From IMG/VR virus record IMGVR_UViG_3300045988_071280: DNA of 64,000 nt. One strand, written 5' to 3'. How positions within the stretch are numbered: position 1 is the stretch's first letter; each line of letters begins with the position of its first letter. The position numbers were made by a program, and so were the translations under genes. The notes beneath the pieces are model-generated. The model saw only the letters and a list, made by a program, of their open reading frames with translations. It was not told where the DNA came from and searched no databases. Positions 3,720-63,997 of the stretch are shown piece after piece. The DNA is from a virus.

Positions 3720-4580
3720 ATGACATTATTAAAAGAAAGACTATTAGAAGCACAAGAAAGAAAAGAGAATGATATTAAAAACTTTACATGGTTATATCCG
3801 AAAGATAGAGATAATGGAAATGTTCAGAATGAGGTTAAATTAGTATCTTGTACTGAGGAACAACTTAAGGGTTTTTATTCCCACTGTAATAAAATGTTAT
3901 ATAATGACTCTAAGGAAAATCCCGGAAGAGTTAATGTGTTAAAAATAATTCAGGACCAAATTACAAAGATTGGAGTCGAGTTAATGCTTCGAGATTTCGA
4001 AGCTAAAAATGAGAATTTCGATAGATTCTCTTTCGCATTATCTATCGATGAGTTCTTGGAAAAGAATAAAGATGTAGATCCCAAAGTTGCTACAATTAAG
4101 AACTTTATTAAGGTAGCTAGAAAATATGAAGATTTAACTTTACATTCTGTATATGAAGGATGTATTGGGAAGTTGGGATTATTTGAGAATCCTCATATCA
4201 CTAAATCTTTTATTCTTAGAATGGGGCTATGGATGAGTAAAATGGCTGGAGATCATAAGAAATTAAAAGAGTGGGCTGAGTTAAATAAATTATCCAGCTT
4301 AAATCCTATGGATAAAGTATATAAATATTTAAGACTTAAAGAACATGATAAATTAAGATCTAATCCAACCGGATTAACTTTATCCCAGATAAAAGGGATG
4401 TTAGAAATTACTAACCATCCTAAAAAGTATAGTGAATTAACTACAGAACAGCTAACAACTCTTAGATATAGGGTATTGTTAGACTTAAGAACTAGTGTAA
4501 GAAGTCATATCTCAAGATGGGAAACTTTAAAGCATCAGATTGAATTAGTTGCTGAATCTAAAGGATTTAAATTGCTTTAA
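3720..4580 (+). CDS. hypothetical protein
   Basis: 286-aa ORF whose stop overlaps the polymerase ATG (TAATG). Confidence 0.55.
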   Translation: MTLLKERLLEAQERKENDIKNFTWLYPKDRDNGNVQNEVKLVSCTEEQLKGFYSHCNKMLYNDSKENPGRVNVLKIIQDQITKIGVELMLRDFEAKNENFDRFSFALSIDEFLEKNKDVDPKVATIKNFIKVARKYEDLTLHSVYEGCIGKLGLFENPHITKSFILRMGLWMSKMAGDHKKLKEWAELNKLSSLNPMDKVYKYLRLKEHDKLRSNPTGLTLSQIKGMLEITNHPKKYSELTTEQLTTLRYRVLLDLRTSVRSHISRWETLKHQIELVAESKGFKLL

Positions 4581-5935
4581 TGATTTATTACGTAACAAAA
4601 GCTTCTGAACTATATAAATCTAATAGATATACTATTATATCCCCTGAAGAGTCGTTAAAATTACTACATCCATTAAAATATGTAGGAACAGATACTGAAA
4701 CTGAAGGATTAGATTGTCATAGTAAGAAACTTTTATCTATTCAATTTGGATGTAGGGATTTTCAAGTAGTTATAGATTGTACTACTATAAATCCCATTAT
4801 ATATAAAGATTATTTAGAATCCGAAAGAATTTTTCTTTTATGGAATGCTAATTTTGATCTTAAATTCTTCTATAAAATAGGAATCTTTCCAGATAATATC
4901 CGAGACTTGATGTTATCTGAAAAAGCTATATATCTAGGATATCCTTCTGGTATGCATAGTATGGCTTTGAAAGAAGCTGCTTGGAAGTATCTAAAAAAGA
5001 GTCTAGATAAATCTGTTAGAGGAAAAATTATCACTCAAGGTTTAAATGAAGAAACTATCGTATATTCCGCAGAGGATGTTGAGCACTTGGAGGATATAAT
5101 GATTGCTCAACAACCAGAATTAGATAATCAAAATTTAAATGCAGCACTTAAATTAGAAAATGAATATGTTAAAGTAAATGCTTATTTTGAATTTTGTGGA
5201 GCTAAATTAGATATTTCTAAGTGGAAGGAGAAAATGAAGAGGGATCAGGAGAACTTAAATAAAGCTAAAGATATCCTCGATTCATGGGTTGTTGATTGGG
5301 AAAATGATAGAATATCTAGAGAATCTGAGTTAGTATATTTAGATGTTTCCAAATTTAGAGGGGATAATGTTATAGAAGAAGATAGGAAAAAATTAAAATT
5401 TGCAAAGAGAAGAAAAGAGTCCGACATCAGAGAGAAAGATGGCACCTTAATTGCAGAAGCATATGAGAAAGAAGTTAAGAGGAAGTATTCTAGTATAAAT
5501 ACTCAGGGGAATTTATTTTCCGGGTTTGATTTAACCCCTAAGTGTACTATCAACTGGAAAAGCTCTGCACAAGTATTACTTCTATTCGAAGAATTAGGCA
5601 TAAAATGTTCTACAATAGATCCGAAAACCAAAGCTTTCAAAAAGTCTATAAATGAAAAAGTTATAGCTCCACAAAAGAAAAAGTTTCCGATTATTGAGTT
5701 GTATCTTAATTTTAAAGAAGCAGAGAAGTTAGTAGATTCTTTTGGACAGAAATTTTTGGATTTTGTTAATCCAGCTACTGGAAGAATACATTCTACTTTT
5801 CATCAGTTTGGTACGGATACGGGGAGATTGTCGTCTACAAGTCCTAATCTACAGCAATTACCAAAGGATGCACTTACTAGATCATGCTTTGTAGCAGAAA
5901 AAGGGAATAAATGGATTAGTTGTGACTATTCTGGT
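4580..5935 (+). CDS. polA: family A DNA polymerase, exon 1 (3'-5' exonuclease domain through motif A)
   Basis: Contains the DTETEGL exonuclease motif and TGRIHSTFHQFGTDTGRLSSTSPNLQQLP. The ORF breaks inside motif A (ISCDYSG|). Confidence 0.9.
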
Positions 5936-5990
5936 TAAAATTGTCATATATAAATGTAATTTTTCTTCATTAATAAAATTTAATAAAATA

Positions 5991-6022
5991 TTTGGATTAA
6001 TCCTGACTAATCTGTATCTTTG
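5991..6022 (+). promoter_or_regulatory. Bacteroidota-type promoter inside intron polA-i1
   Basis: TTTG (5991-5994), a 20-nt spacer, then TATCTTTG (6015-6022), 24 nt upstream of the endonuclease ATG. Confidence 0.5.
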
Positions 6023-6046
6023 CATATTAATCAATACATTTTTATT

Positions 6047-7105
6047 ATGTCAAAGAGAATCACTAAAAGTCAAGAAAATGAAATTATTAAATTGTATGTA
6101 GAGGAAAATAAATCCTCTAAAGAAATTTCGGAGATTATAGGAATCTCTAGTAGTTCAGTATTAAGAGTTTTAAAGAGAAATAATATTGAAACTAGATCTA
6201 AAGCTCCAGTTAGGATACCTAATAAGTTTGGTGAAGAAAAAGAAAAAGAAATTATTAGATTATATACAGAAGAAAATAAAAGTACATTAGAGATTGCAAA
6301 TATTTTCGAAACTTATAATACTTCTATTAGAAGAGTTTTAGAAAGAAATAATGTAAAAATTCGTTCTTATAGTGAAGCTCAACGCTATATAGAGTTAGAA
6401 GATATATCTCTAAAAGAGGGTACTAGAGACTTTGATTATTTTTTAGGGTTATTAGCTACAGACGGATGTGTAACAGAAAATAAGATAGTATTAGATTTTA
6501 GTGAAGAAAACAAGGAACTTTTAGACTATTGGAATGATTTTTTAGGGAATAAATGTAACATTACTATTTCCATTCATAAAGTTTTTAAAGTTCCACAATA
6601 TAGAATAGCTTTTAGGAATAAAGAAGTTGTTAAATATTTAGCTACCTTTGGAATAGTCCCTAGAAAATCCTTCAATTTGAAACTAAAATACATTAATTGG
6701 GATGTATTAAGAGGCATTATTGACGGGGATGGATGTATTTCTTCTACTAATTCAGGAAATACAATAAAATTAGGAATCACTTCTGCATGTAAAGAATTCC
6801 TAATTCAAATCCAAGAATTTCTAGAAGGCGAAGGAATTACTTCTTTTATAAATGAAAGTAAAAGAAACGAAAATCCAATATTTGATCTTTTTGTATATAA
6901 AACTAATGATTTAATGATAATACATAAACATTTATATACTGATGCTCATTACTTTCTTAAAAGAAAAGAGAGTAATTTTGGCCCAATATTAAAGAAATTT
7001 AATATATGTAACTCCGTAAATTCAGTTAACGATGAGCATTCCAAGACTGAGCCAAGCCTTATAGAGGAAGGTGCAGAGACTAGAAACGGAGAACCTAAGG
7101 AATAG
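6047..7105 (+). CDS. LAGLIDADG homing endonuclease with N-terminal tandem HTH repeats
   Basis: Two LAGLIDADG motifs (FLGLLATDGCV, LRGIIDGDGCIS) and two repeats of SKEISEIIGISSSSVLRVLKRNNIETRS type. ATG 6047 is preferred over the tracked TTG at 6020. Confidence 0.85.
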   Translation: MSKRITKSQENEIIKLYVEENKSSKEISEIIGISSSSVLRVLKRNNIETRSKAPVRIPNKFGEEKEKEIIRLYTEENKSTLEIANIFETYNTSIRRVLERNNVKIRSYSEAQRYIELEDISLKEGTRDFDYFLGLLATDGCVTENKIVLDFSEENKELLDYWNDFLGNKCNITISIHKVFKVPQYRIAFRNKEVVKYLATFGIVPRKSFNLKLKYINWDVLRGIIDGDGCISSTNSGNTIKLGITSACKEFLIQIQEFLEGEGITSFINESKRNENPIFDLFVYKTNDLMIIHKHLYTDAHYFLKRKESNFGPILKKFNICNSVNSVNDEHSKTEPSLIEEGAETRNGEPKE

Positions 7106-7157
7106 TATTAGTATATACTATTCTATGGTTAAGGTATAGTCCAGTGTTGACACACTG

Positions 7158-7745
7158 CAAGAAAGTTTCATTATGGCATCTCTATCCAATGATTCCGCTA
7201 TGTTAGATGAGCTACTTAGGGGATCCGGTGACCTTCATTCGCTAACAGCTCGAATGGTGTTCGAAGAGATACCAGATGATACACCACTTAAAGAAATTAA
7301 GACAAAATACCATGATCTCAGACAAAAAGCTAAAGGTTATGAATTTTGCTTTAATTATGGAGGAAATGCCTCTACTCTAGTAAAAAATTATGGGATAGAT
7401 GAGGATTATGCGAAATCTATTTACGATAACTACATGTCTGGTTTTGATGGTTTATGTAGATATCAGAAAAATCAGAGAGATTTTGTTAATAGATATGGTT
7501 ATATTATATTAAATAAACTAGGTCTTCGTGCTCATATATATGACTTCTCTGATTGGGAATATTTAAAGCAGAATAACCCAAGAGAGTATAGACAAAGGAA
7601 AGCAGCTTCAGAAAAGCAGGCAATCAACTATAAAATACAGGGCTCAGGTGCTGCAATGTGGAAATTGGCAATGGTAAAGATATTTAATTATATTAAAAAG
7701 AATAATTATCTTAATATAGTTAAATTATGTGTGCCAGTACACGAT
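7158..7745 (+). CDS. polA: family A DNA polymerase, exon 2 (motif A remainder through motif C)
   Basis: Reads QESFIMASLSNDSAMLDELL..DLHSLTA and motif B-like INYKIQGSGAAMWK. Ends at motif C (VPVHD|). Confidence 0.85.
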
Positions 7746-8114
7746 AATTCTCAACTTTGTCGTGTTAAAACTTGGTTAATTGCTGGGAATCTTTAAAATA
7801 CTATATACTACAAAAATATTGAAAAATATTTTGAATGTTTTAATAAATATAGTATATCTATGTTAAATATAATATAGAGATAAGACAATCAGCAGCTTTT
7901 TCCTAAGTAATACAATTATAAGGAAAGAAGTTCAGAGACTATCTAGAAATAGAGTAAGCTCCAAGAGGAGTTGAAACGCCAAGGTAAGACAGTATTAGAT
8001 TTTGAATCTCGTTAACTATCTAATATGCTAAATAGAATTGTCTTATAAGATATAGTCCGATACTGCAAGAGATTGCAGAAATATCGCGGAATCGGCGATA
8101 TTGTTAACATAAAG
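7746..8114 (+). mobile_element. ORF-less group I intron polA-i2 (369 nt)
   Basis: A 7-bp P1 forms between exon ACACGAT (7739-7745) and GTCGTGT (7759-7765). R GTTCAGAGACTATC lies near 7930 and S AAGATATAGTCC at 8047-8058. The intron ends ...AACATAAAG|GAAGTC. Confidence 0.85.
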
Positions 8115-8261
8115 GAAGTCAACTTAGAAGCACCAGAGAACATAGCAGATGAGATAGCCTCTGTAGTAGTAACTGCAATGAAGTCTGCTGGAGTATATTT
8201 TTGTCCAAATGCTCCCTTAAATGTTACTTGTGATATAGGGGATTTTTGGATTCATGAATAA
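8115..8261 (+). CDS. polA: family A DNA polymerase, exon 3 (C-terminus)
   Basis: Splicing gives VHD|EVNLEAPENIADE..., completing motif C (HDE). All three exons are in phase 0. Confidence 0.85.
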   Translation, partial: EVNLEAPENIADEIASVVVTAMKSAGVYFCPNAPLNVTCDIGDFWIHE

Positions 8262-10264: not shown

Positions 10265-10525
10265 ATGCCATACTATAGAATATTGATGAATGTACCATGT
10301 ACAAAACTTGCAGAAGTTGAGGTATATGCTAAATCTAAAGAAGAAATTATAGAATTCTTTGAACGTAATAGTTATATAGATAGAGATCCTGAACCAGAAG
10401 AGTATGGAGATATTGCGTATTATAATAGTATAGAAGATCTTGTAGAGGTATCTACTACCGTAGACACATACTATGATGAACTTATATATGAGGATCTTGA
10501 ATCTATAACAGAAATTTCAGATTGA
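10265..10525 (+). CDS. small acidic protein, paralogue A
   Basis: MPYYRILMNVPC...VYAKSKEEIIEFF is similar to the next ORF. Confidence 0.5.
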   Translation: MPYYRILMNVPCTKLAEVEVYAKSKEEIIEFFERNSYIDRDPEPEEYGDIAYYNSIEDLVEVSTTVDTYYDELIYEDLESITEISD

Positions 10526-10528
10526 TTT

Positions 10529-10780
10529 ATGCCATATTACGATATATCGTTAACCATTCCTTGTAATGTAAAAGTCTCAACTACTGTGTATGCAGAGTCC
10601 GAAGAAGAAATTAAATATTTCATAAATAAGGGCTATATAAATAGAAATACCACAAATATAATTGAAGATATTGGTAACTTTTATAATGCTTATGATTTAG
10701 TTGAGCTTGCTAATATAGTTGATATAGAACCAAACGCAATTGGAGAACAATATATAGATCGTATAGAAGAAGTAAACTAA
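10529..10780 (+). CDS. small acidic protein, paralogue B
   Basis: MPYYDISLTIPC...VYAESEEEIKYFI is a tandem duplicate of 10265..10525. Confidence 0.5.
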   Translation: MPYYDISLTIPCNVKVSTTVYAESEEEIKYFINKGYINRNTTNIIEDIGNFYNAYDLVELANIVDIEPNAIGEQYIDRIEEVN

Positions 10781-11666: not shown

Positions 11667-11979
11667 AAATTAAGTGCCCCTATTTAATACAAATAAATAG
11701 AAAACCATTTGAATTGCTAGGAACTCGCGAAGATTTAGTAACTAAAACATCAGAAGAAATTCTAAATGTGAATGTTAAAAATACTAAATTATGTGATAAT
11801 TAGCAGCTAAGCTCCTAAGGATGTAATCTATGGAGAAAGTTCAACGACTATCTCGAAAGAGAGTAGGGCTAAGTAGCTCGAAGCGGATGGTATAATATTT
11901 TAATATTATAATGAAATAGTCTAATCTTACACGAAAGTGTAAGAGTATATATGGAAACGATATATACGTAATATAATTG
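11667..11979 (+). mobile_element. ORF-less group I intron in the helicase gene (313 nt)
   Basis: P1 pairs GGGT with GCCC. Q-like TTAGCAGC; R GTTCAACGACTATC near 11839; S GAAATAGTCT near 11913. The intron ends ...TAATATAATTG|GCAGGT. Confidence 0.8.
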
Positions 11980-18276: not shown

Positions 18277-19551
18277 AAGTAAATTTTTTTTATTGTATTT
18301 TATTTGTTTTATTTCATTAAATGTATTTAATTTGTATATTATTAAATAATACAATAAAAATACATTTATGAATAATTTAAATCAAGCTATTAGTGATTAT
18401 GAACATTTATTTATAGGAATTTGTGAATTAAGTAAAAAATATAAAATTCCTAATAAAGAAATTAGAAAAGCGTTAGAAGATAAAGGATATTATTTAGGAA
18501 AAGGAGTATCTCCAAAAAGTGTTGTGCATATTAAACTTGCAGTAGAGGAATATAAAAATATTCTTAATGCTGGTGAAGAACCTAATATTCATCAACTGGC
18601 ATTAAAGTATGATATTTCCGATACGTCTATAAAAGACAATTTAATTAGATTAAATCTTCCTGTTGTAAGATACCCTAAAAAAATCCATTTTGATGAACAT
18701 GTCTTTGATGTTATAGATACTGAAGAAAAAGCATATTGGCTAGGATTTTTAACTGCTGATGGGTATATTTGTAGTAGAGATAATACATTTGGAATTGGTC
18801 TAGCTAGTATAGATAAGCATCATGTAGAAAAATATGCCACATTTCTTAAATGTCCTCAACATGTTAAATTTAAGAATAACGAACATGCTGGAATATATAG
18901 ATGTGATTTAGGAAACGCTCATGTAAAGCAAGTATTACAAAAATATGGATTTACTGCTTCTAAATCTTTTGACTGTACCTTTTTAAAAGACCAGTTTTTT
19001 GCAAATTCCGATTTAATAAGACATTATATTAGAGGATATTTTGATGGAGATGGCTGTGTCAGTTATAAAAAAAAGTATAGAAAAACAATTAATGCCACTA
19101 TTTATATTCCGATAGTTTCTATAGTTGGAACAGAAGCTTTTTTACAAGAATTAAGAAATAAATCAAGTTTAATTTGTCTTTTTCAGTCACAACAAAATTT
19201 ATGGAATTTATATGGATCTGGAAAAAAGGCAAAAGATTTTCTTTATTACATTTATAATAACGCTACTATTTATCTAGATAGAAAATACAATATTTATAAA
19301 AATTATATTGCCCCACACTTAGAGAAATCGAGTGTTCCGCAGTGGCCAATATCGGTAGATACTGAAATGTAAATACCGAGATAAATTCAGAGATCACGAA
19401 AGGCTCTGAATCATCGTAACGCGTAGAAGGTGAATAAATATAATCCTTCCAAGAGTGGCTGCCACCTTAAAGGGTGAAAATGTACGCTGAACTATATCGA
19501 ATAACAAGATATAGAAATAAAGGATAAAAAGCCTTTATGATAACAAAATTG
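18277..19551 (+). mobile_element. group I-like intron, family 2 (about 1275 nt), carrying a LAGLIDADG endonuclease
   Basis: Structured 3' region 19373-19551 with ATCGTAACGCGTAGAA / GTACGCTGAACTAT pairing (GCGTA/TACGC) and hairpins that covary with the intron at 22754-24063. Ends ...TAACAAAATTG|AAACCA. The 5' site is set by phase and the shared TGGT|AAA junction. Confidence 0.65.
18368..19372 (+). CDS. LAGLIDADG homing endonuclease
   Basis: IDTEEKAYWLGFLTADGYI and IRGYFDGDGCVSY. Homologous to 22855..23910. Confidence 0.85.
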   Translation: MNNLNQAISDYEHLFIGICELSKKYKIPNKEIRKALEDKGYYLGKGVSPKSVVHIKLAVEEYKNILNAGEEPNIHQLALKYDISDTSIKDNLIRLNLPVVRYPKKIHFDEHVFDVIDTEEKAYWLGFLTADGYICSRDNTFGIGLASIDKHHVEKYATFLKCPQHVKFKNNEHAGIYRCDLGNAHVKQVLQKYGFTASKSFDCTFLKDQFFANSDLIRHYIRGYFDGDGCVSYKKKYRKTINATIYIPIVSIVGTEAFLQELRNKSSLICLFQSQQNLWNLYGSGKKAKDFLYYIYNNATIYLDRKYNIYKNYIAPHLEKSSVPQWPISVDTEM

Positions 19552-22753: not shown

Positions 22754-22807
22754 GATATATTTTTCATATTTTTAATATAATTATTTAGTTTCCATGGAAA
22801 TAATTTA

Positions 22808-22815
22808 TATATTTG
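22808..22815 (+). promoter_or_regulatory. candidate -7 promoter element inside the intron
   Basis: TATATTTG lies 39 nt upstream of the endonuclease ATG. No clear -33 element. Confidence 0.35.
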
Positions 22816-22854
22816 TTAAATAATAATATATTTAATAAATAATAGAATTATAAC

Positions 22855-23910: not shown

Positions 23911-24063
23911 CGCGTAGAACTTGAACCTCGAAAGAGAATAAAATAGTTCCAAGAGTGGTTTCTACCCCAACACTTTTATAAGTAGTGGGTAAAAAGGTAC
24001 GCTGGACTATAGCAAAAAGAAGCTATAGAAGTTAGGATAAAAAGCCTAACGATAACAAAATCG

Positions 24064-51647: not shown

Positions 51648-51651
51648 ACTG

Positions 51652-54600: not shown

Positions 54601-55845
54601 ACCGTATATTATATTCTTATCTCTATTAAAATTTGGGATTAGTAATAAATCTCCTGGGACTAAGGAATATAACTGAGCTTCTGTGGTTAATTTAACAGGT
54701 TCTGAGTAATTTAAATTATATAAATCCTTCTTAGGATTACCTTCCGAATCTAATACTGTTGATTCATAATTCTTCCAGATTATTTCTGATATTTGTTGAT
54801 AGGATACGTTTTTAGATTTCGGGATTTCGAGTTCTATATAATAAGAATCATTTTTACCAACGAAAGGAACATTATCATATTCCCATCTATTATTTTCTCT
54901 AGAAAAATAAAAGAAATAATTTTTGTTAATTTTAGATACATTTCCATCCCATATTTCTTCTTTGTGTGTAGAATGATTATAATATTTTGTACCAACTAGA
55001 GGATATCTATTATTTAATGGATTTATAATTTCTAACTCTTGATTTGATCCTTGGATAAAAGGATTTATATCCATAGAAAATAATCTCCCAATAAACTCAT
55101 TAAATAAATCAGAGTTATTTATATTTAAAACATCTCTATATTTAGGTTCTGATACTAAATATGCAATAAATTCATTTAAGTCATAACTAGATCCTTTAGA
55201 TACTTTATTAACAAATTCCTTTATATAAGGATCTTTATCCTGATTTTGTTTAGCAGTAGTATATATATTATAAGCTATTTCATTTACTCTCTCAAAATTA
55301 GGATCAGATTTATTTATTTTAGAATAATATAAATGAAGTAGTTCGTGATATAAATCTCTAAGAGTAGCTTCATTAAATATTCCATTAGTTTTTAAGATAA
55401 TAAATTCATTATTTAATAAAGTCCCTCTAACATCTACATTTCCATCGATATTTAATGATTCTATATCTTCATCTAATAATAATATATTTGGTTGAGATGG
55501 ATTAATAGCATTCATATCTATTAACTTATTAATTAATAGAAGAAAATCTTCCTGTAAAGATTTATTAGGTACATAAGAAACTAAAGACCTAATATCATTT
55601 ATAGTGGCGTTTCCGATTAAAGGTTCTCCATTAGAATATACTACTTTAGTAGATAAAAGATTTAAATCTGAAAGAGTACTTAATAATGTATTTAAAGAAT
55701 CTATATCTAATCCAGAAATAGCCTCACTTAAACTAACTGCATTAACTTCGTCATATGAATTTAAGTTGGTAGGAATAATCCCACCAACTTTTTCTTCTCC
55801 ATCTACAATATATTGTATTTCTATGTTACATCCCATATTTAACAA
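51652..55845 (-). CDS. 1397-aa protein with two HExxH zincin-like motifs
   Basis: HELLH at 55333-55347 and HELMH at 52162-52176. The start overlaps the stop of the upstream gene. Confidence 0.6.
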   Translation of the reverse strand: MLNMGCNIEIQYIVDGEEKVGGIIPTNLNSYDEVNAVSLSEAISGLDIDSLNTLLSTLSDLNLLSTKVVYSNGEPLIGNATINDIRSLVSYVPNKSLQEDFLLLINKLIDMNAINPSQPNILLLDEDIESLNIDGNVDVRGTLLNNEFIILKTNGIFNEATLRDLYHELLHLYYSKINKSDPNFERVNEIAYNIYTTAKQNQDKDPYIKEFVNKVSKGSSYDLNEFIAYLVSEPKYRDVLNINNSDLFNEFIGRLFSMDINPFIQGSNQELEIINPLNNRYPLVGTKYYNHSTHKEEIWDGNVSKINKNYFFYFSRENNRWEYDNVPFVGKNDSYYIELEIPKSKNVSYQQISEIIWKNYESTVLDSEGNPKKDLYNLNYSEPVKLTTEAQLYSLVPGDLLLIPNFNRDKNIIYGKFDDDYFSYAKYHPIQSVWKNRNGETFITLVNKYGSNIGHFTISYTDLVKLSLEKNKQIVFRKLYGALKDPNLPEDLIKNIRDTYERNIESEDYNNQPLIKSIGFDRKGLSFKYYTVGKSGFKLDVSNGTNATITQELRQNDIIKLRSWNKEDENSEWDSFTYYAPVIRTIGTIVEVALKNKDGKYFTKKIPFRNIETVIFTKENHPDLDNIYNQFINDYDTYSLNTKDKSKYQSIWFNLNILKSDQQPYRKLEGDFSDNLDRESVIKYRRDKVRSLRIGDSISIEWDLKRTDGSPVISKHIVVGISGDRIYFLNRTTNDSAPKIGFVDLKTEFPLSENSKGQRINIPSLSAIHYNNTSDLELVEDLNIKKENASKAFTRVDDKIVFDPNSNYIPLKDLYYIINIDSSNAEQETAKLQRGDIIRFKENDITFIGVVSNYDPITGTIIVPGSYRSGYLKGRSFRKIVSPQQLEYIGFAINPNYELGIIGHKEISEYNKKRLSRLYDLNHSTYGYSLEEILKKKNLLNKSQDWVIEQEAVYVIPKNITEREFKESYQDSKKKTLPHGRVTLLTPTILDMIKNGELIDLTSEYIKANNVKDTKIYGLKNIRTGIQVNDSTGFYYDPRIYQRSPEQVINIIEVNDVVKIKYNDKFTKYLRIKSITDKGINLESEIVGLNGEIYNNSWYINFNDIKSGKYLISELYYPINKTRQKELENLSITDEVPQIKKVEYFTDTYDKFDKKKILNRVIENVNSTYNNIINVIDDAKIQELVDSENLNSTLADSFSRAGAFIWNGKIYVNINRADISSPLHELMHLIMGALRSKNYSLYSSLLDKVATLPEFNERFRNILTNRTLNDAKEEAFVEFIADSLSGVFSSEEFNINNLLSSTDFFGEYLKVLDSTLSLDLNTLPEKTSETLSRELSKMPIEKIITEFNSLLLSAGNKRFSLFNPENVSEAFKNRNITNIKSSLLNSKNPNTQLLEKC

Positions 55846-57962
55846 TTTATAATAAGTTTTATTTTATTAAGTCTCATTAGATCATTTAGAAGTTCAACTG
55901 TCTTAATAGCTTTTTCAGATTTATTAATAGTTTCTTTTAATTTATAATTGTAATTACTTCTTATTAGATAATATCTCTCATCTCCTAAAAGTTCTACATC
56001 CTTATAGCTCTTATTCTTATTATCATTTCCTAATCTTTCTTGTAATTGATATTTACCTAAGTTCTCATTATATACTTTTACATATTTATTATTTGAAACA
56101 AGAGCTTCGAAACTATCTTTAATTGGAGCCATTCTAAGAAGAACATCATCTATATTAACATCATCCATTGTTACTTTATCACTTTTTGAATCATAAATTA
56201 CTCCCGGAGTTATAGTATTTAAATCTAGTCCTCCAATGTATTTAAAGTAATCTACAATTAAACTTCCCGGATTAAATACTGATCCTTGTAATACTTTTAA
56301 TATACTATCTTGTCCTTTTCTTCCTTTATGAGTAATTAGATTATATATAAAAAACAAGTCAGATAATTTAATACCCCTAAATTCAACATTTTCAATTTCT
56401 CCAAATGCTGAAACTTGTTTATCAAATTCAGGATTGTTTATAGTAGTAACCATATTTATAGATGGCCTATAATATATATAATTAGATCCATCTAATTTAG
56501 AAGTATTATCAGTTATAATTAATCCATTTAAAAATGCGTTATTAACTAACTGCGATCCAAAAGTCATTACTCCTTTAGAATTAATTGTATATCCACTCTT
56601 TAACATTGGAATTACATAAGATTCCATATATAATTTAAAGGATGCTAAACCATCATCATTAGATAAAGAATAAGATGTTTGCTCAGTAGCGGTAAGCATT
56701 TCCCCATTTAAGAAATAATTTTGGCCTTTAGGAACTGAAATAGATAAATTTTTATTTTTTAAATATTTTCTAATTATTAATTCATCTATATAATCTCTAA
56801 TAATATTTAGTTGAGATTCAGATAATTTATTAGGCATAGTAATTTTACCAATTCTCCTTCTCATTATTATATTTTCTAAATTATCTATAATAGCGTTTGA
56901 TAATGCATATTTAACACTTCCTAATTTAGAATTTTGTTCATTTATATAATAAGCATTAATAAACGATTTATAATGTGGAAGAGAATTTATTAAATCAAAT
57001 ACATTTATTACAGACTTTATTAAGTTATAGAATTTAATAACAGACTCTGTATAATCAGGTTGTTCCAAGAACTTAGCTATATCAAACTTCATACTAGAAA
57101 AAGTTCCATTTGAAGACATTTTATCTAGAGCATCTCCAACTATAGAAGATAATTCTTGGTCTGTATATATATTCCCAATATTAGGATTATATTTTTTTAA
57201 TGCTCCAATGAAATCATTAGCTGTATCTCCAGTTAATTGAAGTTTATCTAACCCGTTTTGAATTAATGTATTAAAGGACTTACTGAAATTATATCTATCA
57301 TATTGCTTAGTCTTTATACCTCCATTAATTCCTAAAATTTGACCTAACGTAGCTATTTCTTTTGCTCCAGTGTAAGCTTTTACAAAGGTAGTAAAATTTG
57401 TTTTAGATTTTACTGATGAATCAAATAAATCTTTTAAATCCTTAAATTTCTTCACTTGTTTAAAATATCTAATCAAACCCTGCACTACTTCCTCAGAAGA
57501 TCTAACTAATGCTAATTCATCCCACTCTGACATAGAATCTAAGAATGTCAAAGCATACTCTTCATCAAGAAATCTCTCATTAACAAAATTATATTTAGTA
57601 GTTTCGAGATCATTGATAATTTCGTTTATATCATTTGATGTTAGTTCATTAAGTTTAAATGCGGAGATTATCTTAGAATTATATAATGTATTTAAATATA
57701 ATGAAACAGATTTTACATATCCTTTCCCAATAAAATTTGTAAGTGATGGTCCTTTTTCTATATTTCTTAATGTAGAATCTATAGTGGCGTATTGATCGTA
57801 CATTCTATTAACTGTAGCTGCTTGAACTATAGCATTAACCTCTGAACTAGTCATAAGATCTGAGATATTATCAAATGATAAGCCTTGGATTAATAAATAT
57901 ACATATACTCCAGCTAGATCGGGACCAGCATTAATCTTTGATAAGATCAATTCTTTAGCATT
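55839..57962 (-). CDS. giant RNA polymerase-like protein, exon 3 (707 aa)
   Basis: Begins NAKELILSK directly after intron-terminal G 57963. The tracked TTG at 57965 is an artefact. Confidence 0.65.
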   Translation of the reverse strand, partial: NAKELILSKINAGPDLAGVYVYLLIQGLSFDNISDLMTSSEVNAIVQAATVNRMYDQYATIDSTLRNIEKGPSLTNFIGKGYVKSVSLYLNTLYNSKIISAFKLNELTSNDINEIINDLETTKYNFVNERFLDEEYALTFLDSMSEWDELALVRSSEEVVQGLIRYFKQVKKFKDLKDLFDSSVKSKTNFTTFVKAYTGAKEIATLGQILGINGGIKTKQYDRYNFSKSFNTLIQNGLDKLQLTGDTANDFIGALKKYNPNIGNIYTDQELSSIVGDALDKMSSNGTFSSMKFDIAKFLEQPDYTESVIKFYNLIKSVINVFDLINSLPHYKSFINAYYINEQNSKLGSVKYALSNAIIDNLENIIMRRRIGKITMPNKLSESQLNIIRDYIDELIIRKYLKNKNLSISVPKGQNYFLNGEMLTATEQTSYSLSNDDGLASFKLYMESYVIPMLKSGYTINSKGVMTFGSQLVNNAFLNGLIITDNTSKLDGSNYIYYRPSINMVTTINNPEFDKQVSAFGEIENVEFRGIKLSDLFFIYNLITHKGRKGQDSILKVLQGSVFNPGSLIVDYFKYIGGLDLNTITPGVIYDSKSDKVTMDDVNIDDVLLRMAPIKDSFEALVSNNKYVKVYNENLGKYQLQERLGNDNKNKSYKDVELLGDERYYLIRSNYNYKLKETINKSEKAIKTVELLNDLMRLNKIKLIINC

Positions 57963-58285
57963 CAATTATGTTACTGTTATATCGTTTCCATATAACATCT
58001 CTATATTTCTATAGAAGTTCTGACTATATCTTAGCCAATAAGGCTCTCCCCATTTCGGAATTACTAATTCCTACGATACTCGATTCTATTTGTTTAAATA
58101 GTCTTTCTCTAGTCGATGCTCTTTTATCCTATTAGGATACTTAGATCAGGATTATCCAATCTTTATACTTGTTACTATACCTGAGTAATTAGTTCAGCCA
58201 TTTAAATATTACTATTTAAATTTAGTATATAAAGCTCTAAGGATGTTCCCTGAGTTAAAGGAGTTTTTTACAACAAACCACGCAT

Positions 58286-59353
58286 TTAATTAAAATATTT
58301 AAGTTTATATTTCATTTCTGGAATAATATAAGGTAATATCAATTCTTCGAAGTGTTTTCTGCTTTTCTCTTTGATATAAAAAAGATTCCAATTTTTGTCT
58401 TTTACAATTCGAATAGTGGTTTCAATATTAAATTTAGTTAATAACCACTTAGATAGTAGACTACATTCCTGTAAAGTAAAGGAACATGTAGCAATAGTCC
58501 CATTCGAACTCCCATCATCCATAAACCAATAAGCCAATGCTATTGGATGATAGATTTTGGATAGATACTCTTCTGTAACAGTTTTTACTTTATTTATATA
58601 AAGAATGTCATATATATTAGTGAATATGGGATGACTATAACTATTTCCTCTATACGTTTGATAAACATTTCCAGTTCTCGAATCTGGGGAAGGTGTTTCT
58701 AATCTATATGCTCCCATAAATTCCCCTAATATCTCAACCTTCTTCATAAATAACGCCTTTTGTTTGACGGAATGTACTATTGTTAGTCTTGAATTATTAT
58801 GTCTATTACTCTGTGGATGTGATAAATTTAAATCTCCTAAAAGAGAACCTAAAATCATTTGTTCCTGTTCTTCCGTTAGAGAGACATCTAATTGAGAGAA
58901 ATATCTTTGTTGTTTCAAATTTAATATTCCTCTATGTCTCCTAACAGTAGGAATAGAACAATTAAAATATTCAGCTAATTGTTCATCGGAATATCCAGAC
59001 TCAAATAGGTCTATTAATTCTGGATATTGATCTTCTGTAATAGACTTTAAAGATCTAGGTTGTATTCCTAATTTTCTAAGATGAAATCCTATAGTTTTCC
59101 CACTTTTACCTAGAATTTTTCCTATCTCTTCTGCTGTTTTTCCTTCTTCATAAAGAGATTTTATTTTTTCTAAATATTCCTTATCTACTCTAGTTTCACC
59201 TTTTCTAGATCTTCTAGTTACATTAGCTTTTCTTAAAATGTCCTGAATTGTTCTAGGGTTTTTTCCTTCTTTTTCAGCGATTTCTTTTGCTTCTAATCCT
59301 GAGTTGTACATATCTACAACTCTTTGAATGTATTCTTCACTACGTTTTTGCAT
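58286..59353 (-). CDS. LAGLIDADG homing endonuclease with three N-terminal HTH repeats
   Basis: ILGSLLGDLNL and AYWFMDDGS motifs, with repeated ..EIAEKEGKNPRTIQDILRKANVTRRS-type HTH units. Confidence 0.8.
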   Translation of the reverse strand: MQKRSEEYIQRVVDMYNSGLEAKEIAEKEGKNPRTIQDILRKANVTRRSRKGETRVDKEYLEKIKSLYEEGKTAEEIGKILGKSGKTIGFHLRKLGIQPRSLKSITEDQYPELIDLFESGYSDEQLAEYFNCSIPTVRRHRGILNLKQQRYFSQLDVSLTEEQEQMILGSLLGDLNLSHPQSNRHNNSRLTIVHSVKQKALFMKKVEILGEFMGAYRLETPSPDSRTGNVYQTYRGNSYSHPIFTNIYDILYINKVKTVTEEYLSKIYHPIALAYWFMDDGSSNGTIATCSFTLQECSLLSKWLLTKFNIETTIRIVKDKNWNLFYIKEKSRKHFEELILPYIIPEMKYKLKYFN

Positions 59354-59386
59354 AAAATTTTATTTGATTAAAAATTATTATTTATG

Positions 59387-59394
59387 CAAATATA
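59387..59394 (-). promoter_or_regulatory. candidate -7 promoter element for the intron endonuclease
   Basis: TATATTTG on the minus strand, 33 nt upstream of ATG 59353. Confidence 0.35.
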
Positions 59395-59451
59395 GATATT
59401 ATATTTTATTATTCCTAATGATTTCAATAAATATTTTGACGGCTTTGGATC

Positions 59452-60507
59452 AGTTGCTGCCGAGATTAAACTTGAGATAACGAGAGATTTGTCTTCTTGA
59501 AATCTATTTTGTGTAAGATCTATTGCATCTTTCACACTAATACTTTTATCTCTAGCTTCATTTAAAAGATCATATACAAACTCAATATCATCAAGATTAA
59601 TGTTAGCCAAACTATTTGTGAATAATTTAATGAGTTCCCCATCACTCTTCCCTTCATTTCCAGGAATATTTTTATAAATCTCAAAAACATTATTGAAATA
59701 TAAATTTGATTTTAATAAATCTTCTACAGTCAATCCTTTTTCAGCTAATTTTCTTATTTCCTGATTAAAGTACTGAGTTGCAGCTAAAAATACTTTTTGT
59801 CCTACAGCACTTATACCAATAACCTCTTTTCCAGCCATATTTTCGAAGAATAAGTTCCATTTAACAGACGGACAAAAATCAGTAACTGTTTTTGCATAAG
59901 CTCCAGCTTCTGATTTAGCAGCAGCAGCTTGTGGATCTCCCATACTAATAGGTGATTCAGCAGCTACAAGATTTTTAAAGTTATCGGAGATCTGATATAT
60001 CTTATTATATACGAAATTCTTTGTAGCGGATAAAAGTTTATTTGGACTTATTTCTTTAAGGTGTCTAGATATATCAATATCTAAATTCTCTATCATATTT
60101 GATATAAGTATTCTGGCACTTTCTATATCCTCATTCCTTGATTTATCATCTGAATTTTCTTTTATATAATTTAAATCATTAACTAAATCAGGATTGTAAT
60201 ATAATTGTATATTAGTTTGTTTGAATCTATCTACCTTATTTAAAACGTCTACAGCTAATTTTAATCTAGTATTATCCCCATCATATTCTCCGTTTAAGAT
60301 AGATGAGATTTCAGAAGTTATATCTATATAAGGTATTTCCGGATTTATTTCAGAAGTTATTGTATATTTTAAATCTGAATTTGGAAATGGTAATTGTTTT
60401 GAGAGTTCAAATGATTCATTATCTCTATAATTAAATAACGATGACCATGCTTCATAAATTCCATTTTTATTTATTAAAGGCATTGTCATGTAGACTTTAT
60501 CAATATC
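59452..60507 (-). CDS. giant RNA polymerase-like protein, exon 2 (about 352 aa)
   Basis: Starts DIDKVYMTMPLINK immediately after intron-terminal G 60508. The 3' end is uncertain (see intron rnap-i2). Confidence 0.65.
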
Positions 60508-60844
60508 CGTTTGACCTTTATATTTTCATATAAAGACTGACTATATCATCACTTTTAAAGTGCCTCCCGCTTCGGATTATTTAAATCCTACTCTACTAAG
60601 TTCTATTTAAATATTAAATAGCTTTTCGATAGTCGATGAACTTTTCTCTTATATAAGAGACTTAGCTGCGGATTACCCAATCTTAACACTTTTTACTGTA
60701 CTGAGGTAATTATTCTCACCATTTAAATATTACTATTTAAACTTAGTATATTAAGCTCTAAGGGATTTCCCGCAATTCAAGAGGTTTATTATAGTGATTA
60801 CAATTTTATACTGTCGTCTAACTCAAACTTAAAAATTTAGACCA
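60508..60844 (-). mobile_element. ORF-less group I intron rnap-i1 (337 nt)
   Basis: A perfect 9-bp P1 forms between exon AGTGATTAT (60853-60845) and GTAATCACT (60801-60793). Q GGGTAATCCGCAGCTAAG, R GTTCATCGACTATCG, S GATGATATAGTCAG. Ends ...GGTCAAACG|GATATT. Confidence 0.85.
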
Positions 60845-63800
60845 ATAATCACTACCTTCCAGCCATGTTTGATACAAGCTGACATAAGCTTCATTACTTT
60901 CTGCATCAGAAAATCCTACTACATCCATTGCCATAATAGACTGAAATGCTTGTGCAGGAATACGATTCGCTGTTATTTTTAAACTCTCAATAAATGATCT
61001 ATATATCTTCTTAGAATCTCTTTTGATTCTTTTATTTATGTAATTATTATATTTATCATTTAACTCTTCTATACTACTATTATCTATATCTAATTCTTCT
61101 CCCAATCTTGAATCTGTCATATTTATATAATCTCTTAACTCTTTAATATTATCAGAATTAAAATTATACCATATTCCTATATAATCGTCAGAAGAATTAA
61201 ATACATTAACTAAATTCCCTAAATTAGAAAGATCTACAACAATTACTTCTTGAACTATTCCATTACTAGTATCCTGATAAAAATGAAGTCCAGATGTTTT
61301 ATATACAGCTTCTCCATTTTCATTTAATCTCCATTCTTCTCCATCTATAACTTCTGTTAATATTTCTATTGGAGTTAGTGAAGATATATAATTTTCAGAA
61401 CTAGGCTTATTTATAATAATTCTAGTATTATCTAAACTATTCTTTAAAAATTCTATATCATTTGGAAGAGGATCTGATTTAGCTTTATTATATGTTCTTA
61501 ATAGTTTCTGTCTAAAGTACTCCCCATCACTATTAATAATATTCGCAATATTATCTCCAGTTCGTAATCCGAATATAGATTGATATACCTTAGATATTAC
61601 AGCCTGTGCTCTTTTTATATTTAAATCATGTATTCTTACTCCTTGAAGTCCTTCGCCAAATTCTATTATATCATTATTATCTATAATTGTTTGATATTCA
61701 GGCATTCTAGGATCTAATAACATAATATTCTCATCCAACAATCCAATGTATCTATTAACAAAGTGTTGAAGTGCTAGAATTTCCTCTTTAGATGCTTTAG
61801 ACTCTCTTAATCTAAACATATCTTCGATTATCGGATGGTCATAAATATTATATTTCTTATTTACTCCATCAATACTCCAAGTAGCTCTAAAAGGTTGAAG
61901 TTCTTTTCTGATTCCTTTTAAATTAGTTACTGTAGTATTTAAATTTCGATAATGTTTAAATTTATCATAAGTATTTATATCCACCTGTTCTCCGGTAGTA
62001 GGATCTAATATAATATCGCCAAACTCTATTAAATCCGTAGATATTTCTTGTGTTAAATTTCCTGTTTCTAAATATCTATCTAAACCAGATTTAAGAATAT
62101 TTCCATTTTCATCAGTAAAAGAATAATAACCAGCTTCATTAGCTATATGTATTAAATCTTCCTGAGAATAATACCCTCTTAAAACATTTCTATTAGAATC
62201 AAATAAATTCTCAGATCCATCAAAATAATAATGTTTTATAGATCCATAAGAAGGAATCATTACAGCTCCCATACCAGAGAAGGTTCTTTTAATACTATCA
62301 GAGTTCATTTTAGATGCTAACATAGTTATAAAAGAACTATTTATACTTCCGGAACTAAATGGAATTTTAAATCTTAAATCTCTAGCATTAAATAATTCAT
62401 TATTTAAATTCTCCTCAAACTCTCTTGCAGCTTCTTCTAAATAACCAGTAATTACTCCATCTCCAGAGCTCCCTTCGAAGGCTTTAATAGTTGCTTTAGC
62501 TAGAAGTTTATATAATAATGTTTTATTAGCTTCTCCTAATTCTGTAAGAGTTTCTAAGTTATTAGCTTGATTATGTGCTTCAAAATACTTCTTTAAAGTA
62601 GTATTTACTACAGAACCTAAAGCTCTATAAGCTGCATCAGCTAAATCTGATGTATATCCATTAGCTGCTAAAGTACTAATAATCTGAGTAGATTCAGTAA
62701 CAGTAGATAAATCAGCATGGTGATCTGCATCCATTTGAATACCCATGAATTGTGTACCAACTCTACCATAGGATAAAGGAGTATCATCGTATCTAGCACT
62801 AGCTGGATTTGTATTAAACGCTCCAACTTTTATTGATGTTCCATTTGCTAGATAATGTATATCAGAGTATTTAAGAGGTTGATATATATAATTCTGATCT
62901 AGTATTACTCTTAATTTTCTTTGTTCGTCTAATATATAACTAGAATCTTCTGGAATATTGTTAAATGTAAATGGAAGATCTTGTTTAGATATAATTGTAT
63001 TTAATAAATCTAAATCACCATTAACCATATTTAATAGATCTCTCTTAGTTATATAATATCCGGTTTTATTCATAAACTGTACTGTAGCATTTACAGAAGC
63101 CTCTCCTTTATCTCCGGAATTAGTTAAATAAGGATCTAAAGGATTAGAATTATCTAATGAATAAGAATACTCTCCACCTAGAGCTTTCCATAATTTATAA
63201 TTACTATCTATTACTACAGTTCTTGTTACATTTTTACTATTTTGAGTATCTCCTCCGTTTTTATTAACTCTTCGTTCTATAATATTATAAGTATTATTTC
63301 CTAGAGATTCTAAATCAATTATTCTATAATATTCTCCATTATTCGTATTATAATAATATAAATCCTCGGATATAATATCTCTAAGATGACGTTTATTACC
63401 ATTAAAATCTTGCATTAAATTAATAATAGGAACATCCCATTTTCTATCAGTCATTTTTTGCAACAATTTAACTTTCTCTGGAGACTTTCTCATTCGATAA
63501 TTAGTTATAGAGAATATAGCACATTTCATTAATAACCCATTACCAAATTCAGGATCTACATTATATCCAAAATTCTTTCTATTATATCCAGCACTAGAGC
63601 TAAACATTGAATTATTCTCTAATACATTCTGAAATGGATTACATTCCATAGAGCCATCTAATACCTTTACATTATCAGTCTCCCCAGAAGGATTAAATAC
63701 AGGAGCTTCTATATCTTTGATAATTGCTACATTTATAGTTGGAGTTGTTCCTTCTAATGCTTTTTGATAATAATTGTGTATAGTAGCTTGCATAGCAACC

Positions 63801-63997
63801 ATACGTTTATATTGAGCTAATAATCTATTAGCATGATCCCGGATAAAATATTCCGGATTTATAGATCCATCGGAATTTAAATAATACACACCTCTTAATT
63901 TAGATGGATGTGCATAAGGTTCTCCTACACTTACTTGAAGGAATTGGTTAGATAAGAACCCATCTAAAAAGAAATATTTTTCTAATATAGGATTCAA
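60845..63997 (-). CDS. giant RNA polymerase-like protein, exon 1 (N-terminus lies beyond the window)
   Basis: Open to the window edge. The C-terminal part NRIPAQAFQSIMAMDVVGF...SLYQTWLEGSDY resembles the catalytic double-psi beta-barrel leading into the metal-binding motif. Confidence 0.7.

Follow-up and report, generated by a model that had tools for sequence, protein, structure and literature searches.

Why do the open reading frames (ORFs) of seven genes in one stretch of viral DNA stop inside conserved motifs and resume in phase further downstream? The question is raised by a window of 64,000 nt, the whole stretch analysed here, from IMG/VR record IMGVR_UViG_3300045988_071280, for which an initial annotation proposed twelve group I introns and a single intein, together about 16% of the DNA. 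We consider it very likely that the DNA belongs to an uncultured crAss-like phage in which seven genes have been invaded by twelve self-splicing group I introns and the class II ribonucleotide reductase (RNR) by a LAGLIDADG intein, the window comprising a replication/nucleotide-metabolism module and the start of a giant-gene block. All 13 elements were found (Table 1), and the count is supported by covariance-model matches, by structure and covariation at the RNA level, by genes for homing endonucleases, and by the exact presence or absence of the insertions among relatives, with conserved motifs restored in frame. With a corrected intron total of 9,381 nt and an intein of 1,191 nt, they occupy 16.5% of the window, the local intron density being one per 5.3 kb. 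The earlier intron total of 9,384 nt was reproduced exactly, as was that of the intein, with one intron (RNAP-1) placed provisionally at 60820–60481, and changed when that intron was corrected; the lower bound of the size range (225 nt) stood, while the upper bound is 1486 rather than 1489 nt.

Table 1. Interrupted genes, introns and intein in the window. A slash in a motif marks the junction; scores are in bits (RF, Rfam RF00028, gathering score 50; R1, model trained on six introns of the window); L numbers are related loci.
Feature	Position	Strand	Length	Site or content	ORF	Core	Score	Absent from
polA gene	4580–8261	+	696 aa spliced	3 exons
polA-1	5936–7157	+	1222 nt	polymerase motif A, DYSG/QESF	LAGLIDADG, 6020–7105	~6976–7157	R1 12.8 (7040–7161)	10 loci
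polA-2	7746–8114	+	369 nt	motif C, VHD/EVNLEAP	none		RF 46, E=1e-10 (local scan, below gathering score); R1 50.9	4 loci, exact junction
DnaB-like helicase intron	11667–11979	+	313 nt	Walker A, ADSG/AGKS	none		RF 84.2	5 loci
Exonuclease-gene (exo) intron	18277–19551	+	1275 nt		LAGLIDADG, 18368–19372	~19340–19551, type B	R1 19.3 (19369–19515)	L057
MPE-1 (metallophosphoesterase)	22311–22618	+	308 nt	GDSNH/D	none credible		RF 62.5	10 loci
MPE-2	22754–24063	+	1310 nt		LAGLIDADG, 22855–23910	~23860–24063, type B	R1 15	L057, L059
Class II RNR gene	26355–31686	+	818 aa mature	4 exons + intein
RNR-1	27093–27317	+	225 nt	GGVR/R	none		RF 99	at least 20 loci, with intein
Intein	27321–28511	+	397 aa	Cys start, His-Asn end, then Ser; LAGLIDADG endonuclease domain				at least 20 loci, with RNR-1
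RNR-2	28738–29007	+	270 nt	inside catalytic-Cys codon of NPC motif (phase 1)	none		RF 92.3	21 loci, exact junction
RNR-3	29400–30588	+	1189 nt	TTCIKP/DGNIS	HNH, 29482–30516	30256–30535	RF 80.1	13 loci
Dda-like SF1 helicase intron	34997–36073	+	1077 nt	THKS/QGS	phrog_314, 35263–36066		R1 41.2	22 loci
Giant gene	55839–64000	−		3 exons, first runs off window
RNAP-2 (giant-gene intron 2)	57963–59448	−	1486 nt		LAGLIDADG_2, 59353–58286	~58306–57963	R1 66.4; RF 33, E=7e-7 (local scan, below gathering score)	at least 3 loci, exact junction
RNAP-1 (giant-gene intron 1)	60508–60844 (predicted)	−	337 nt		none		RF 59.1 (60840–60517)	none of 21 relatives covering the site

Junctions were taken from intron-less alleles in a comparison set of 92 related IMG/VR loci. 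For eleven of the 12 introns and for the intein, some relatives (85–100% identical) precisely lack the insertion, which fixes these junctions to the nucleotide, and joining the flanks brings known motifs back into frame. None of the seven spliced genes contains an internal stop codon, and in the alignment with intact homologues that the initial annotation had suggested all seven are colinear; its claims that the genes are broken within conserved motifs and resume in phase, that every 5′ exon ends in T and that every intron ends in G (12 of 12 in both cases) were borne out at the junctions found here. Spliced PolA gave one continuous Pfam DNA_pol_A match (positions 29–379 of 381; 231 bits, against 89 and 97 bits for the fragments) and is similar over its full length to Crassvirales PolA (45–52% identity), a full-length DnaB_C match (1–250 of 255) was obtained from the spliced product only, and a UvrD_C_2 match spans the spliced Dda junction. 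The spliced RNR, which matches 1L1L, is colinear in one piece with an intact phage ribonucleoside-triphosphate reductase (RTPR; 98% coverage, E=9e-168). Here RNR-1 is inserted one codon upstream of the intein, and the relatives that lack both have the restored mature sequence SGGVRRSALAILF. The intein itself is in frame, precisely missing from relatives and matched by Pfam Intein_splicing (2e-14), LAGLIDADG_3, Hom_end and Hint_2; the host protein aligns to 1L1L straight across its site, where VRRSA is conserved. Where alleles with and without an intron are compared, substitutions cluster near the insertion sites: their density within 30 nt of a junction is 10.7% versus 4.7%, about 2.3-fold higher, an excess that fits co-conversion or target-site divergence.

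The exception is RNAP-1, for which all 21 relatives covering the site carry the intron. Its junction probably lies at 60844–60508, because of stop codons in two distant homologues (L093 and L094, 44–45% identity) and a compensatory change in its 11-bp P1. Placement at about 60820–60481 was rejected, as those stop codons exclude it and P1 agrees; the predicted splice sites thus move 24 and 27 nt upstream of those read from the ORF ends, and the mature protein would run ...WLEGSDY/DIDKVYMTMPLIN... across the junction. The spliced giant gene has no stop codons; in the relative L092 it spans about 3,180 aa, with a first exon of 2130 aa. The RNAP-like label given to it earlier, retained here only in the intron names, is unsupported, the gene having no match in Pfam, PHROG, PDB or annotated phages and no DxDGD motif.

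Ribozyme signatures were sought with covariance models. A plain RF00028 scan, as the initial annotation had advised, matched only three of the 12 introns, the speed filters hiding others; six (RNR-1, RNR-2, RNR-3, DnaB, MPE-1 and RNAP-1) score above the gathering threshold. Whole-window RF00028 scans gave no match for Dda, polA-1 or MPE-2. Model R1, a covariance model trained only on the six introns above the gathering score, recovered RNAP-2, polA-2 and Dda, and gave weak matches that coincide exactly with the cores predicted for exo, MPE-2 and polA-1 and are marginal (E = 0.016–0.47), with no other strong match. The core strings that had been reported for ten introns were confirmed; they sit inside introns and are enriched, the Q-like string with 13 matches versus 1.95 expected (none of 100 shuffles reached 13), the S-like with 13 versus 6.9 and the R-like with 12 versus 6.9. 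Pairings P1 and P10 with a U.G wobble at the splice site were found, including P1 of 7 bp with a terminal U.G and P10 of 5 bp in polA-2, 8 and 7 bp in Dda, and P10 of 9 bp in RNR-1; P1 is short (3–4 bp) in MPE-1, polA-1, exo and RNAP-2. The polA-1 core is compact and canonical, and its RNAfold minimum-energy structure contains P2, P3 (CUCCGU/ACGGAG), P4, P6, P8 and P9 in canonical order.

The two remaining introns, exo and MPE-2, carry a variant of the core strings, as the earlier count of ten implied, and could be read as another class of intervening element. The exo core had no RF00028 match even in a dedicated small-region scan, the R1 scores of both are low and P1 is short. We nevertheless hold this reading to be very unlikely. 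Their shared 'type B' core, missed by Rfam, differs from the classical R/S strings by two compensating P7 pair swaps (GACUA/UAGUC to GCGUA/UACGC), and its helix order (P3, P4/5, P6, P7, P7.1, P3′, P8, P7′, P9, P9.1) with a P3/P7 pseudoknot is group I topology with many compensatory changes. Covariation is strong: in alignment A3, pairing holds for 97% of cells versus 25–45% with the partner slid, and double changes occur in 24 of 49 pairs; the structure was hand-derived from the same six sequences that were later counted, which makes this control somewhat favourable. The exon ends in U, the intron in G, a guide sequence followed by P2 is present (GCCGT in MPE-2, positioned 3′ of the ORF), and the weak R1 matches fall exactly on the predicted cores. 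Group II signatures (5′ GUGYG, domain V) were absent from both, and without its ORF the element is only about 250–300 nt long. Relatives of type B were found in 79 phage records.

An ORF is present in six introns, in every case an endonuclease (four LAGLIDADG, one HNH, one phrog_314), and six are ORF-less. In five introns the ORF occupies the P1 loop; that of polA-1 extends from there into the core and matches Pfam LAGLIDADG_3 and phrog_4645, that of MPE-2 also matches phrog_4645 (3e-49), that of RNR-3 overlaps the core and matches Pfam HNH, that of RNAP-2 matches Pfam at 8e-30, and that of Dda, downstream of P7.1, matches phrog_314 ('homing endonuclease'). ORF-less versions also occur among relatives, of 304 nt for Dda (L002, L018 and L019) and about 281 nt for RNR-3 (about 23 loci). 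These endonuclease genes would also suit unspliced cassettes or dead mobile elements, the host genes being pseudogenes or fragments that assemble after translation, and public gene callers do annotate the exons separately (P0001, P0003 and P0004 start at an in-frame Met just before PLINKNG/PLINNNG). Such an explanation appears extremely improbable, however: the six insertions without any ORF have full ribozyme cores, which score above the Rfam gathering threshold except in polA-2, the breaks lie inside catalytic motifs and in RNR-2 inside a codon, so that the fragments could not fold alone, the downstream exons lack start codons, and the interrupted genes encode essential replication enzymes that are intact in sister genomes. 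An assembly artefact, a metagenomic chimera of intron-plus and intron-minus strains, is scarcely credible: many strains with differing intron sets co-occur in sample 3300045988, the window's exact combination is in no single fetched locus and the 1189-nt RNR-3 is in none of 36, but every other element is found in several independent contigs, always with the same boundaries, and chimerism could alter the observed combination, not create elements or precise junctions.

For self-splicing introns, we infer from this anatomy the following course in infected cells. Each intron, apparently seated at a highly conserved and functionally critical codon, would fold in the transcript into a P1–P10 ribozyme; guanosine would attack after the U that ends the exon, which pairs with the internal guide sequence as a U.G wobble, and the terminal G would then direct exon ligation, restoring the reading frame. 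The intein would be removed at the protein level. The endonucleases presumably cleave the intron-less alleles of relatives infecting the same cell, the intron being copied in by repair, and the six ORF-less introns may be 'passengers' or survivors.

Introns of T4 (td, nrdB and nrdD(sunY)) and of Staphylococcus phage Twort have group IA-type cores with P7.1/P7.2 and lie at conserved motifs of nucleotide-metabolism/replication genes, some with homing endonucleases, and in Twort several may occupy one gene; the window resembles them in core type, target genes, conserved-motif insertion, endonucleases and multiple introns per gene. The endonuclease ORFs of T4 lie in P6 or P9, in contrast to the P1 loop used by five introns here. 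In T4, three introns are spread over 169 kb, compared with twelve in 64 kb here, and relative to T4 the density is indeed very unusual, as had been claimed.

The load is real and striking, yet matching overloads are on record for some crAss-like and jumbo gut phages. Zeta crAss-like phages carry up to 14 introns and three inteins per genome (PMC7886860, Yutin et al. 2021). The window is like intron- and intein-rich crAss-like phages, especially Zeta (PMC7886860; 'Echekviridae', PMC12386605), in being gut-derived with a crAss-type PolA, in its forward replication/nucleotide-metabolism block followed by a reverse block, in related contigs that reach 167 kb, in having core genes with numerous group I introns and inteins, and in close strains that differ mainly in mobile elements; class II RTPR, the class found here, is reported in some Zeta phages (PMC7886860; PMC12386605). 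As differences from these phages, no stop-codon reassignment, tRNA or recognisable virion RNAP motif was found within the window; Lera phage PV725988 was not among the matches, and the window offers no TerL, MCP or portal gene for Zeta placement. One intron per 5.3 kb is denser than the highest whole-genome value published, about one per 12 kb, although this sets a hotspot against whole genomes, and the published counts rest on endonuclease domains, so that ORF-less introns, which make up half of those in the window, would be missed. Jug (jumbo gut) phages of 360–402 kb have about 18.5 introns per genome, roughly one every 20 kb, detected using cmscan and subtype models; many group I introns, endonucleases and inteins break up terL, nrdD and DNA polymerase of these Bacteroidota gut phages, and metatranscriptome reads confirmed splicing for 37 of 76 predicted introns (PMC12880540). 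The Jug RNR is class III whereas that of the window is class II, and there is no sign that the window belongs to the Jug clade. In PhiPA3, a case of interference competition, the intron-encoded endonuclease gp210 sits in an essential gene, and related phages lack the intron (PMC11620839); the window likewise has intron endonucleases in essential genes and intron-less relatives, and this case suggests a functional reason why intron sets differ between strains, with a competitive role that is hypothetical here.

The window was compared by BLAST with 92 related loci, which were obtained from four IMG/VR searches with the window proteins and lie mostly on contigs whose proteins are 85–100% identical to those of the window; segments were listed where their flanks are contiguous in a relative, and the coordinates of the initial annotation were left unused. 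This comparison revealed precise presence/absence polymorphism for 11 of the 12 introns proposed in that annotation and for the proposed intein, and the junctions were set by nucleotide-level reading of the empty sites in intron-less alleles (Table). The twelve introns and one intein claimed for seven genes between 4580 and 63997 are all present, 11 introns and the intein being precisely absent from relatives. At the junctions fixed by comparison all upstream exons terminate in T and all introns in G (12 of 12 each), exactly as had been described, and none of the seven spliced genes contains an internal stop. Excision leaves a continuous reading frame at each site, backed by intron-less alleles for 11 introns and by distant homologues for RNAP-1, one of the two introns of a giant minus-strand gene, and intact homologues align colinearly with the spliced proteins. 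Two earlier candidate ends were dropped: polA-2 at 8078, where the Rfam alignment ends, since intron-less alleles give 8114 (...ACATAAAG), and RNR-1 at 27309 or 27311, for which alleles without intein and intron give 27317. The initially reported 9,384 nt of intron is reproduced with RNAP-1 placed provisionally at 60820-60481 and becomes 9,381 nt once that junction is corrected; the 1,191 nt given for the intein stands, and introns and intein together make up 16.5% of the window after the correction, in line with the original estimate of about 16%.

Table. Positions of the introns and the intein in the window, with the protein context of each site (caret, insertion point; exo, exonuclease; MPE, metallophosphoesterase; RNR, class II ribonucleotide reductase; RNAP, giant minus-strand gene)
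Element	Position	Strand	Context
polA-1	5936-7157	+	DYSG^QESF
polA-2	7746-8114	+	VHD^EVNLEAP
DnaB-like	11667-11979	+	ADSG^AGKS
exo	18277-19551	+	TTG^KPW
MPE-1	22311-22618	+	GDSNH^D
MPE-2	22754-24063	+	MHG^KDSD
RNR-1	27093-27317	+	GGVR^R
intein	27321-28511	+	C...HN^S
RNR-2	28738-29007	+	within Cys codon of NPC
RNR-3	29400-30588	+	IKP^DGN
Dda	34997-36073	+	THKS^QGS
RNAP-1	60844-60508	-	...WL(E/Q)GSDY^D(I/V)DK(V/A)Y... (mature protein, from L093 and L094)
RNAP-2	59448-57963	-	SAATD^NAKE

RNAP-1 has no empty site, as the intron is present in every relative, and a protein search found only homologues starting at its downstream exon. Its junction was fixed with two related loci, L093 and L094, whose homologues of 44–45% identity are both interrupted, in the fetched contigs, at the RNAP-1 position or at most 6 nt away; in L094 a TGA directly follows GSDY and a TAA precedes ACG^GAT. 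The guide pairing joins exon GTGATTAT with GTAATCAC in the window, where P1 reaches 11 bp, and GTGACTAT with GTAGTC AC in L094, a compensatory change. Because the mature sequence in these loci and the guide pairing agree, we assign RNAP-1 a length of 337 nt at the position in the Table; the homologues rule out the placement that reproduced the original total, and the match to the Rfam group I intron model RF00028 at 60840-60517 falls wholly inside the corrected bounds. In eight relatives (L092:6893-7460; L074, L078, L082, L086, L087, L089 and L090) another group I intron lies 16 nt upstream of RNAP-1, at the equivalent of window position ~60860, where the window has none. The 16-nt mini-exon between the two introns, CCAAGGATCGGACTAT, encodes L-QGSDY, and each of the adjacent introns has a separate P1 (ATGGCT/GGTCAT and GACTAT/GTAGTC).

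The spliced translations were then set against intact homologues, a check put forward with the initial annotation, and proved colinear for PolA and RNR. The Pfam DNA_pol_A profile is split across ORFs (positions 29-160 in one, 165-336 in the next), and the spliced PolA gives a single match over 29-379 of 381; its best full-length matches are from Crassvirales (cr111_1, 52%; PhiCrAssBcn and Kehishuvirus, 45%). The helicase is recognisable as a DnaB_C protein only once spliced. The reductase is a class II monomeric ribonucleoside-triphosphate reductase (RTPR) whose alignment to 1L1L passes straight through two junctions and which aligns without a break to an intact phage RTPR, both the exonuclease and the metallophosphoesterase have their PHROG matches in exonuclease families, and the spliced metallophosphoesterase shows the DxH, GD and GNHD motifs. 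A pair of overlapping DNA ligase ORFs (36207-36746 and 36682-37947) was checked for a split gene and none was indicated. No deposited phage is closely related to the window, which contains no tRNA genes, and the Lera phage (Zeta) PV725988 was not among the tblastn matches in the phage collection searched; the TerL, MCP and portal genes lie outside the window and the fetched flanks.

Scans with RF00028, also proposed at the outset, bore out the group I assignment in part. In the whole window, at the gathering score (50 bits) or an E-value threshold, full-length matches were obtained for only 3 of the 12 introns (RNR-1, 99 bits; RNR-2, 92.3 bits; RNR-3, 80.1 bits), and polA-1, Dda and MPE-2 gave none. 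Scans of small regions (350–450 nt), which loosen the Rfam filters, brought the number at or above the gathering score to six by adding DnaB (84.2 bits), MPE-1 (62.5 bits) and RNAP-1 (59.1 bits); polA-2 (46 bits) and RNAP-2 (33 bits) fell under that score and were locally significant, and a dedicated small-region scan of the exo core gave no match. What hides five further introns in this AT-rich window (27% G+C) is the filtering for speed and bias and not the RF00028 model itself, and the Rfam alignments span the full model (1-253) in eight introns. The six introns passing the gathering score were used to train a covariance model, R1; their MAFFT alignment as whole introns (441 columns) was of low quality at the 5' end and over-long for a model, and it was cut to the part from the Q motif to P9. 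Run unfiltered on the window, R1 recovered three introns outside its training set (RNAP-2, 66 bits; polA-2, 51 bits; Dda, 41 bits) and gave weak matches exactly at the predicted cores of exo, MPE-2 and polA-1 (19, 15 and 13 bits); as it gave no other strong match, the window holds no thirteenth classical intron. The core strings reported initially are indeed enriched at the proposed introns (Q-like, 13 versus 1.95 expected; S-like, 13 versus 6.9; R-like, 12 versus 6.9). Taken together, the identification of the twelve insertions as group I introns, alongside one intein, is supported.

Folding of the cores points the same way. The unconstrained minimum-energy fold of polA-1 (6975-7157) contains the guide region, P2, P3 (CUCCGU/ACGGAG), P4, P6, P8 and P9 in canonical order, and the intron also has a P7 (GACUA/UAGUC). 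The Dda core is broken by its ORF, and in its 5' half it shares 77% identity with RNAP-1. The introns of exo and MPE-2 resemble each other, both being without the classical R and S strings and having P7 as GCGUA/UACGC in place of GACUA/UAGUC. This variant core, termed type B, was aligned with four further distinct copies from relatives and forms eight helices (P3, P4/5, P6, P7, P7.1, P8, P9 and P9.1), with a pseudoknot between P3 and P7. Standard pairs occupy 97.1% of the alignment cells, compared with 25–45% when the 3' partners are slid, and double-sided changes occur in 24 of the 49 pairs, including five of the six in P3, values reached by almost no shuffle; these counts come from six sequences only, the same ones from which the structure was derived. 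Relatives of the type B core were found in 79 phage records (Staphylococcus, Clostridium, Bacillus and several crAss-like phages), where they are mostly unannotated or adjoin endonuclease genes. A P1 with a terminal U.G could be located for all twelve introns, often with a P10 as well. The pairing of P1 and P10 is strong in polA-2 (7 + 5 bp), Dda (8 + 7), RNAP-1 (11 + 3) and RNR-1 (4 + 9), whereas P1 is short in MPE-1, polA-1 and exo (3 bp each) and in RNAP-2, and measures 4–5 bp in most other introns.

By Pfam searches of the ORF fragments, five of the gaps contain a LAGLIDADG or HNH endonuclease, and the ORF of the Dda intron, which had no Pfam match, was identified through PHROGs; all six intron ORFs are endonucleases. 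The guide sequence follows the ORF in polA-1, exo, MPE-2, RNR-3 and RNAP-2, which places the ORF in the P1 loop. The HNH ORF of RNR-3 (29482-30516) enters the core by ~260 nt, up to the S element, and the LAGLIDADG ORF of polA-1 (6020-7105) extends through P3-P8. The intein begins with CLRGDDD..., ends with ...THN and is followed by Ser, and matches Intein_splicing (2e-14), Hint_2, LAGLIDADG_3 and Hom_end in Pfam; at least 20 relatives lack it precisely and read GGVRR^SALAILF at the site. The intein is in frame, with a Hint domain and the Cys, His-Asn and +1 Ser residues, and is accordingly a predicted protein-splicing element. The 3' splice site of RNR-1 lies one codon (CGA, 27318-27320) ahead of the intein insertion site, so two different mobile elements target the GGVRR^S motif; both are present in three loci (L051, L054 and L066) and both absent in at least 20.

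Among the related loci, intron occupancy varies by site and by strain, and the Dda, RNR-3 and polA-2 sites have versions with and without the ORF. When the window is compared with intron-less alleles, substitutions amount to 10.7% up to 30 nt from the junctions and 4.7% at more than 60 nt, figures that are indicative only as the alleles are non-independent. Relatives carry extra introns at sites empty in the window, in polA (~5823/5847 and 7630), DnaB (12724) and RNR exon 1 (26718, 26826 and 26948), where R1 found classical cores; further insertions occur at the equivalents of 1856, 4707, 17080, 24060, 24960, 33120 and 38631. The extra insertions measure 240–3,460 nt and at least seven have classical group I cores. 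Since relatives have introns where the window has none, we infer at least 20 intron sites in the 64-kb module across the population; the RNR gene has up to about six (three in the window and three in relatives) plus the intein. Other window-specific segments (1054-1253, 1954-3189, 10388-10752 and 54882-55024) were checked as missed introns. The region 1500-3200 was rejected as a variable intergenic or accessory cassette that interrupts no conserved ORF and is without intron features; within it, 1954-3189 (ORF 1926-2747, no family match) is swapped for other sequence in relatives, some of which have insertions of 772 or 1557 nt at 1856, and 1054-1253 also lies in a variable accessory region. 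The segment 54882-55024 (minus strand) was rejected as an in-frame indel of ~141 nt inside an uninterrupted 1397-aa ORF, again without intron features; ~141 nt are replaced by ~15 nt in 18 relatives and ~155 nt by ~29 nt in two more.

The 3' core of RNR-3 (30416-30583) shares 80–96% identity over 54–170 nt with sequences from unrelated phages, namely Salmonella Vi06 (within or adjacent to its DNA polymerase), Proteus phage sequences, Bacillus SerPounce and Claudi, and the crAss-like cr53_1 and cr118_1, which suggests that this intron lineage spread widely by horizontal transfer. We regard it as a tentative and rather doubtful possibility that introns are kept in active exchange within the population, in a combination that differs in every sampled strain, that the endonucleases would act as weapons between co-infecting strains and not purely as selfish passengers, and that standard pipelines (Rfam and endonuclease-domain searches) would undercount such introns two- to four-fold.

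These results fit the known picture of intron-rich gut phages. Introns and inteins of crAss-like phages have been detected through endonuclease domains (PMC7886860), close strains of Zeta phages, a few of which encode a class II RTPR, differ mainly in endonuclease-bearing elements according to a 2025 study (PMC12386605), Jug phages have ~18.5 group I introns per 360–402-kb genome, metatranscriptome reads having confirmed 37 of the 76 that were predicted (PMC12880540), and competition between co-infecting phages through an intron endonuclease has been demonstrated (PMC11620839). One intron per 5.3 kb puts the window at the top of the described range, although a hotspot module is here set against whole-genome averages; the density had been called very unusual, which holds relative to T4 but is moderated by the intron-rich gut phages already published. 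The observation itself is confirmed and its interpretation supported, the adjustments being one junction, one gene label and a novelty tempered by the literature, and the current understanding of group I introns is unchanged. The by-products are exact coordinates, the undercounting by standard scans and the polymorphism data set. Since default Rfam settings recover three of the 12 introns, and six would come out of a search by endonuclease domain, published intron counts for gut phages are likely underestimates. Seven essential genes of an abundant type of gut phage can be read only with the introns taken out, and in public gene calls their exons stand as separate hypothetical proteins. Near-identical relatives with differing intron sets, comprising empty sites, versions with and without ORFs, and flanking substitution tracts, form a natural homing data set that could serve to test endonuclease-mediated competition between strains.

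The label 'RNAP-like' given initially to the giant gene is unsupported in every sequence-level test and remains a guess: Pfam, PHROGs, phmmer against PDB (run twice) and tblastn against annotated phages gave no family match, and a motif scan found no DxDGD. The neighbouring 1397-aa and 1490-aa ORFs likewise have no Pfam, PHROG or PDB match and no DxDGD, the nearest string in the three genes being NSDGDN, and a crAss-type virion RNA polymerase could lie outside the window. The giant gene encodes ~3,180 aa in the related locus L092, where exon 1 accounts for 2130 aa. The three giant genes (~3,180, 1,397 and 1,490 aa) form a block at 47175-64000 on the minus strand without a detectable family, and the only database relatives of this block are unannotated human-faecal 'Bacteriophage sp.' records (MT835470, MT835492 and MT837483; 24–30% identity). 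In public protein collections the exons of the giant gene are stored as separate 'proteins' (P0001, P0003 and P0004), one cluster having 1,520 members, and the fragmentation therefore propagates into databases.
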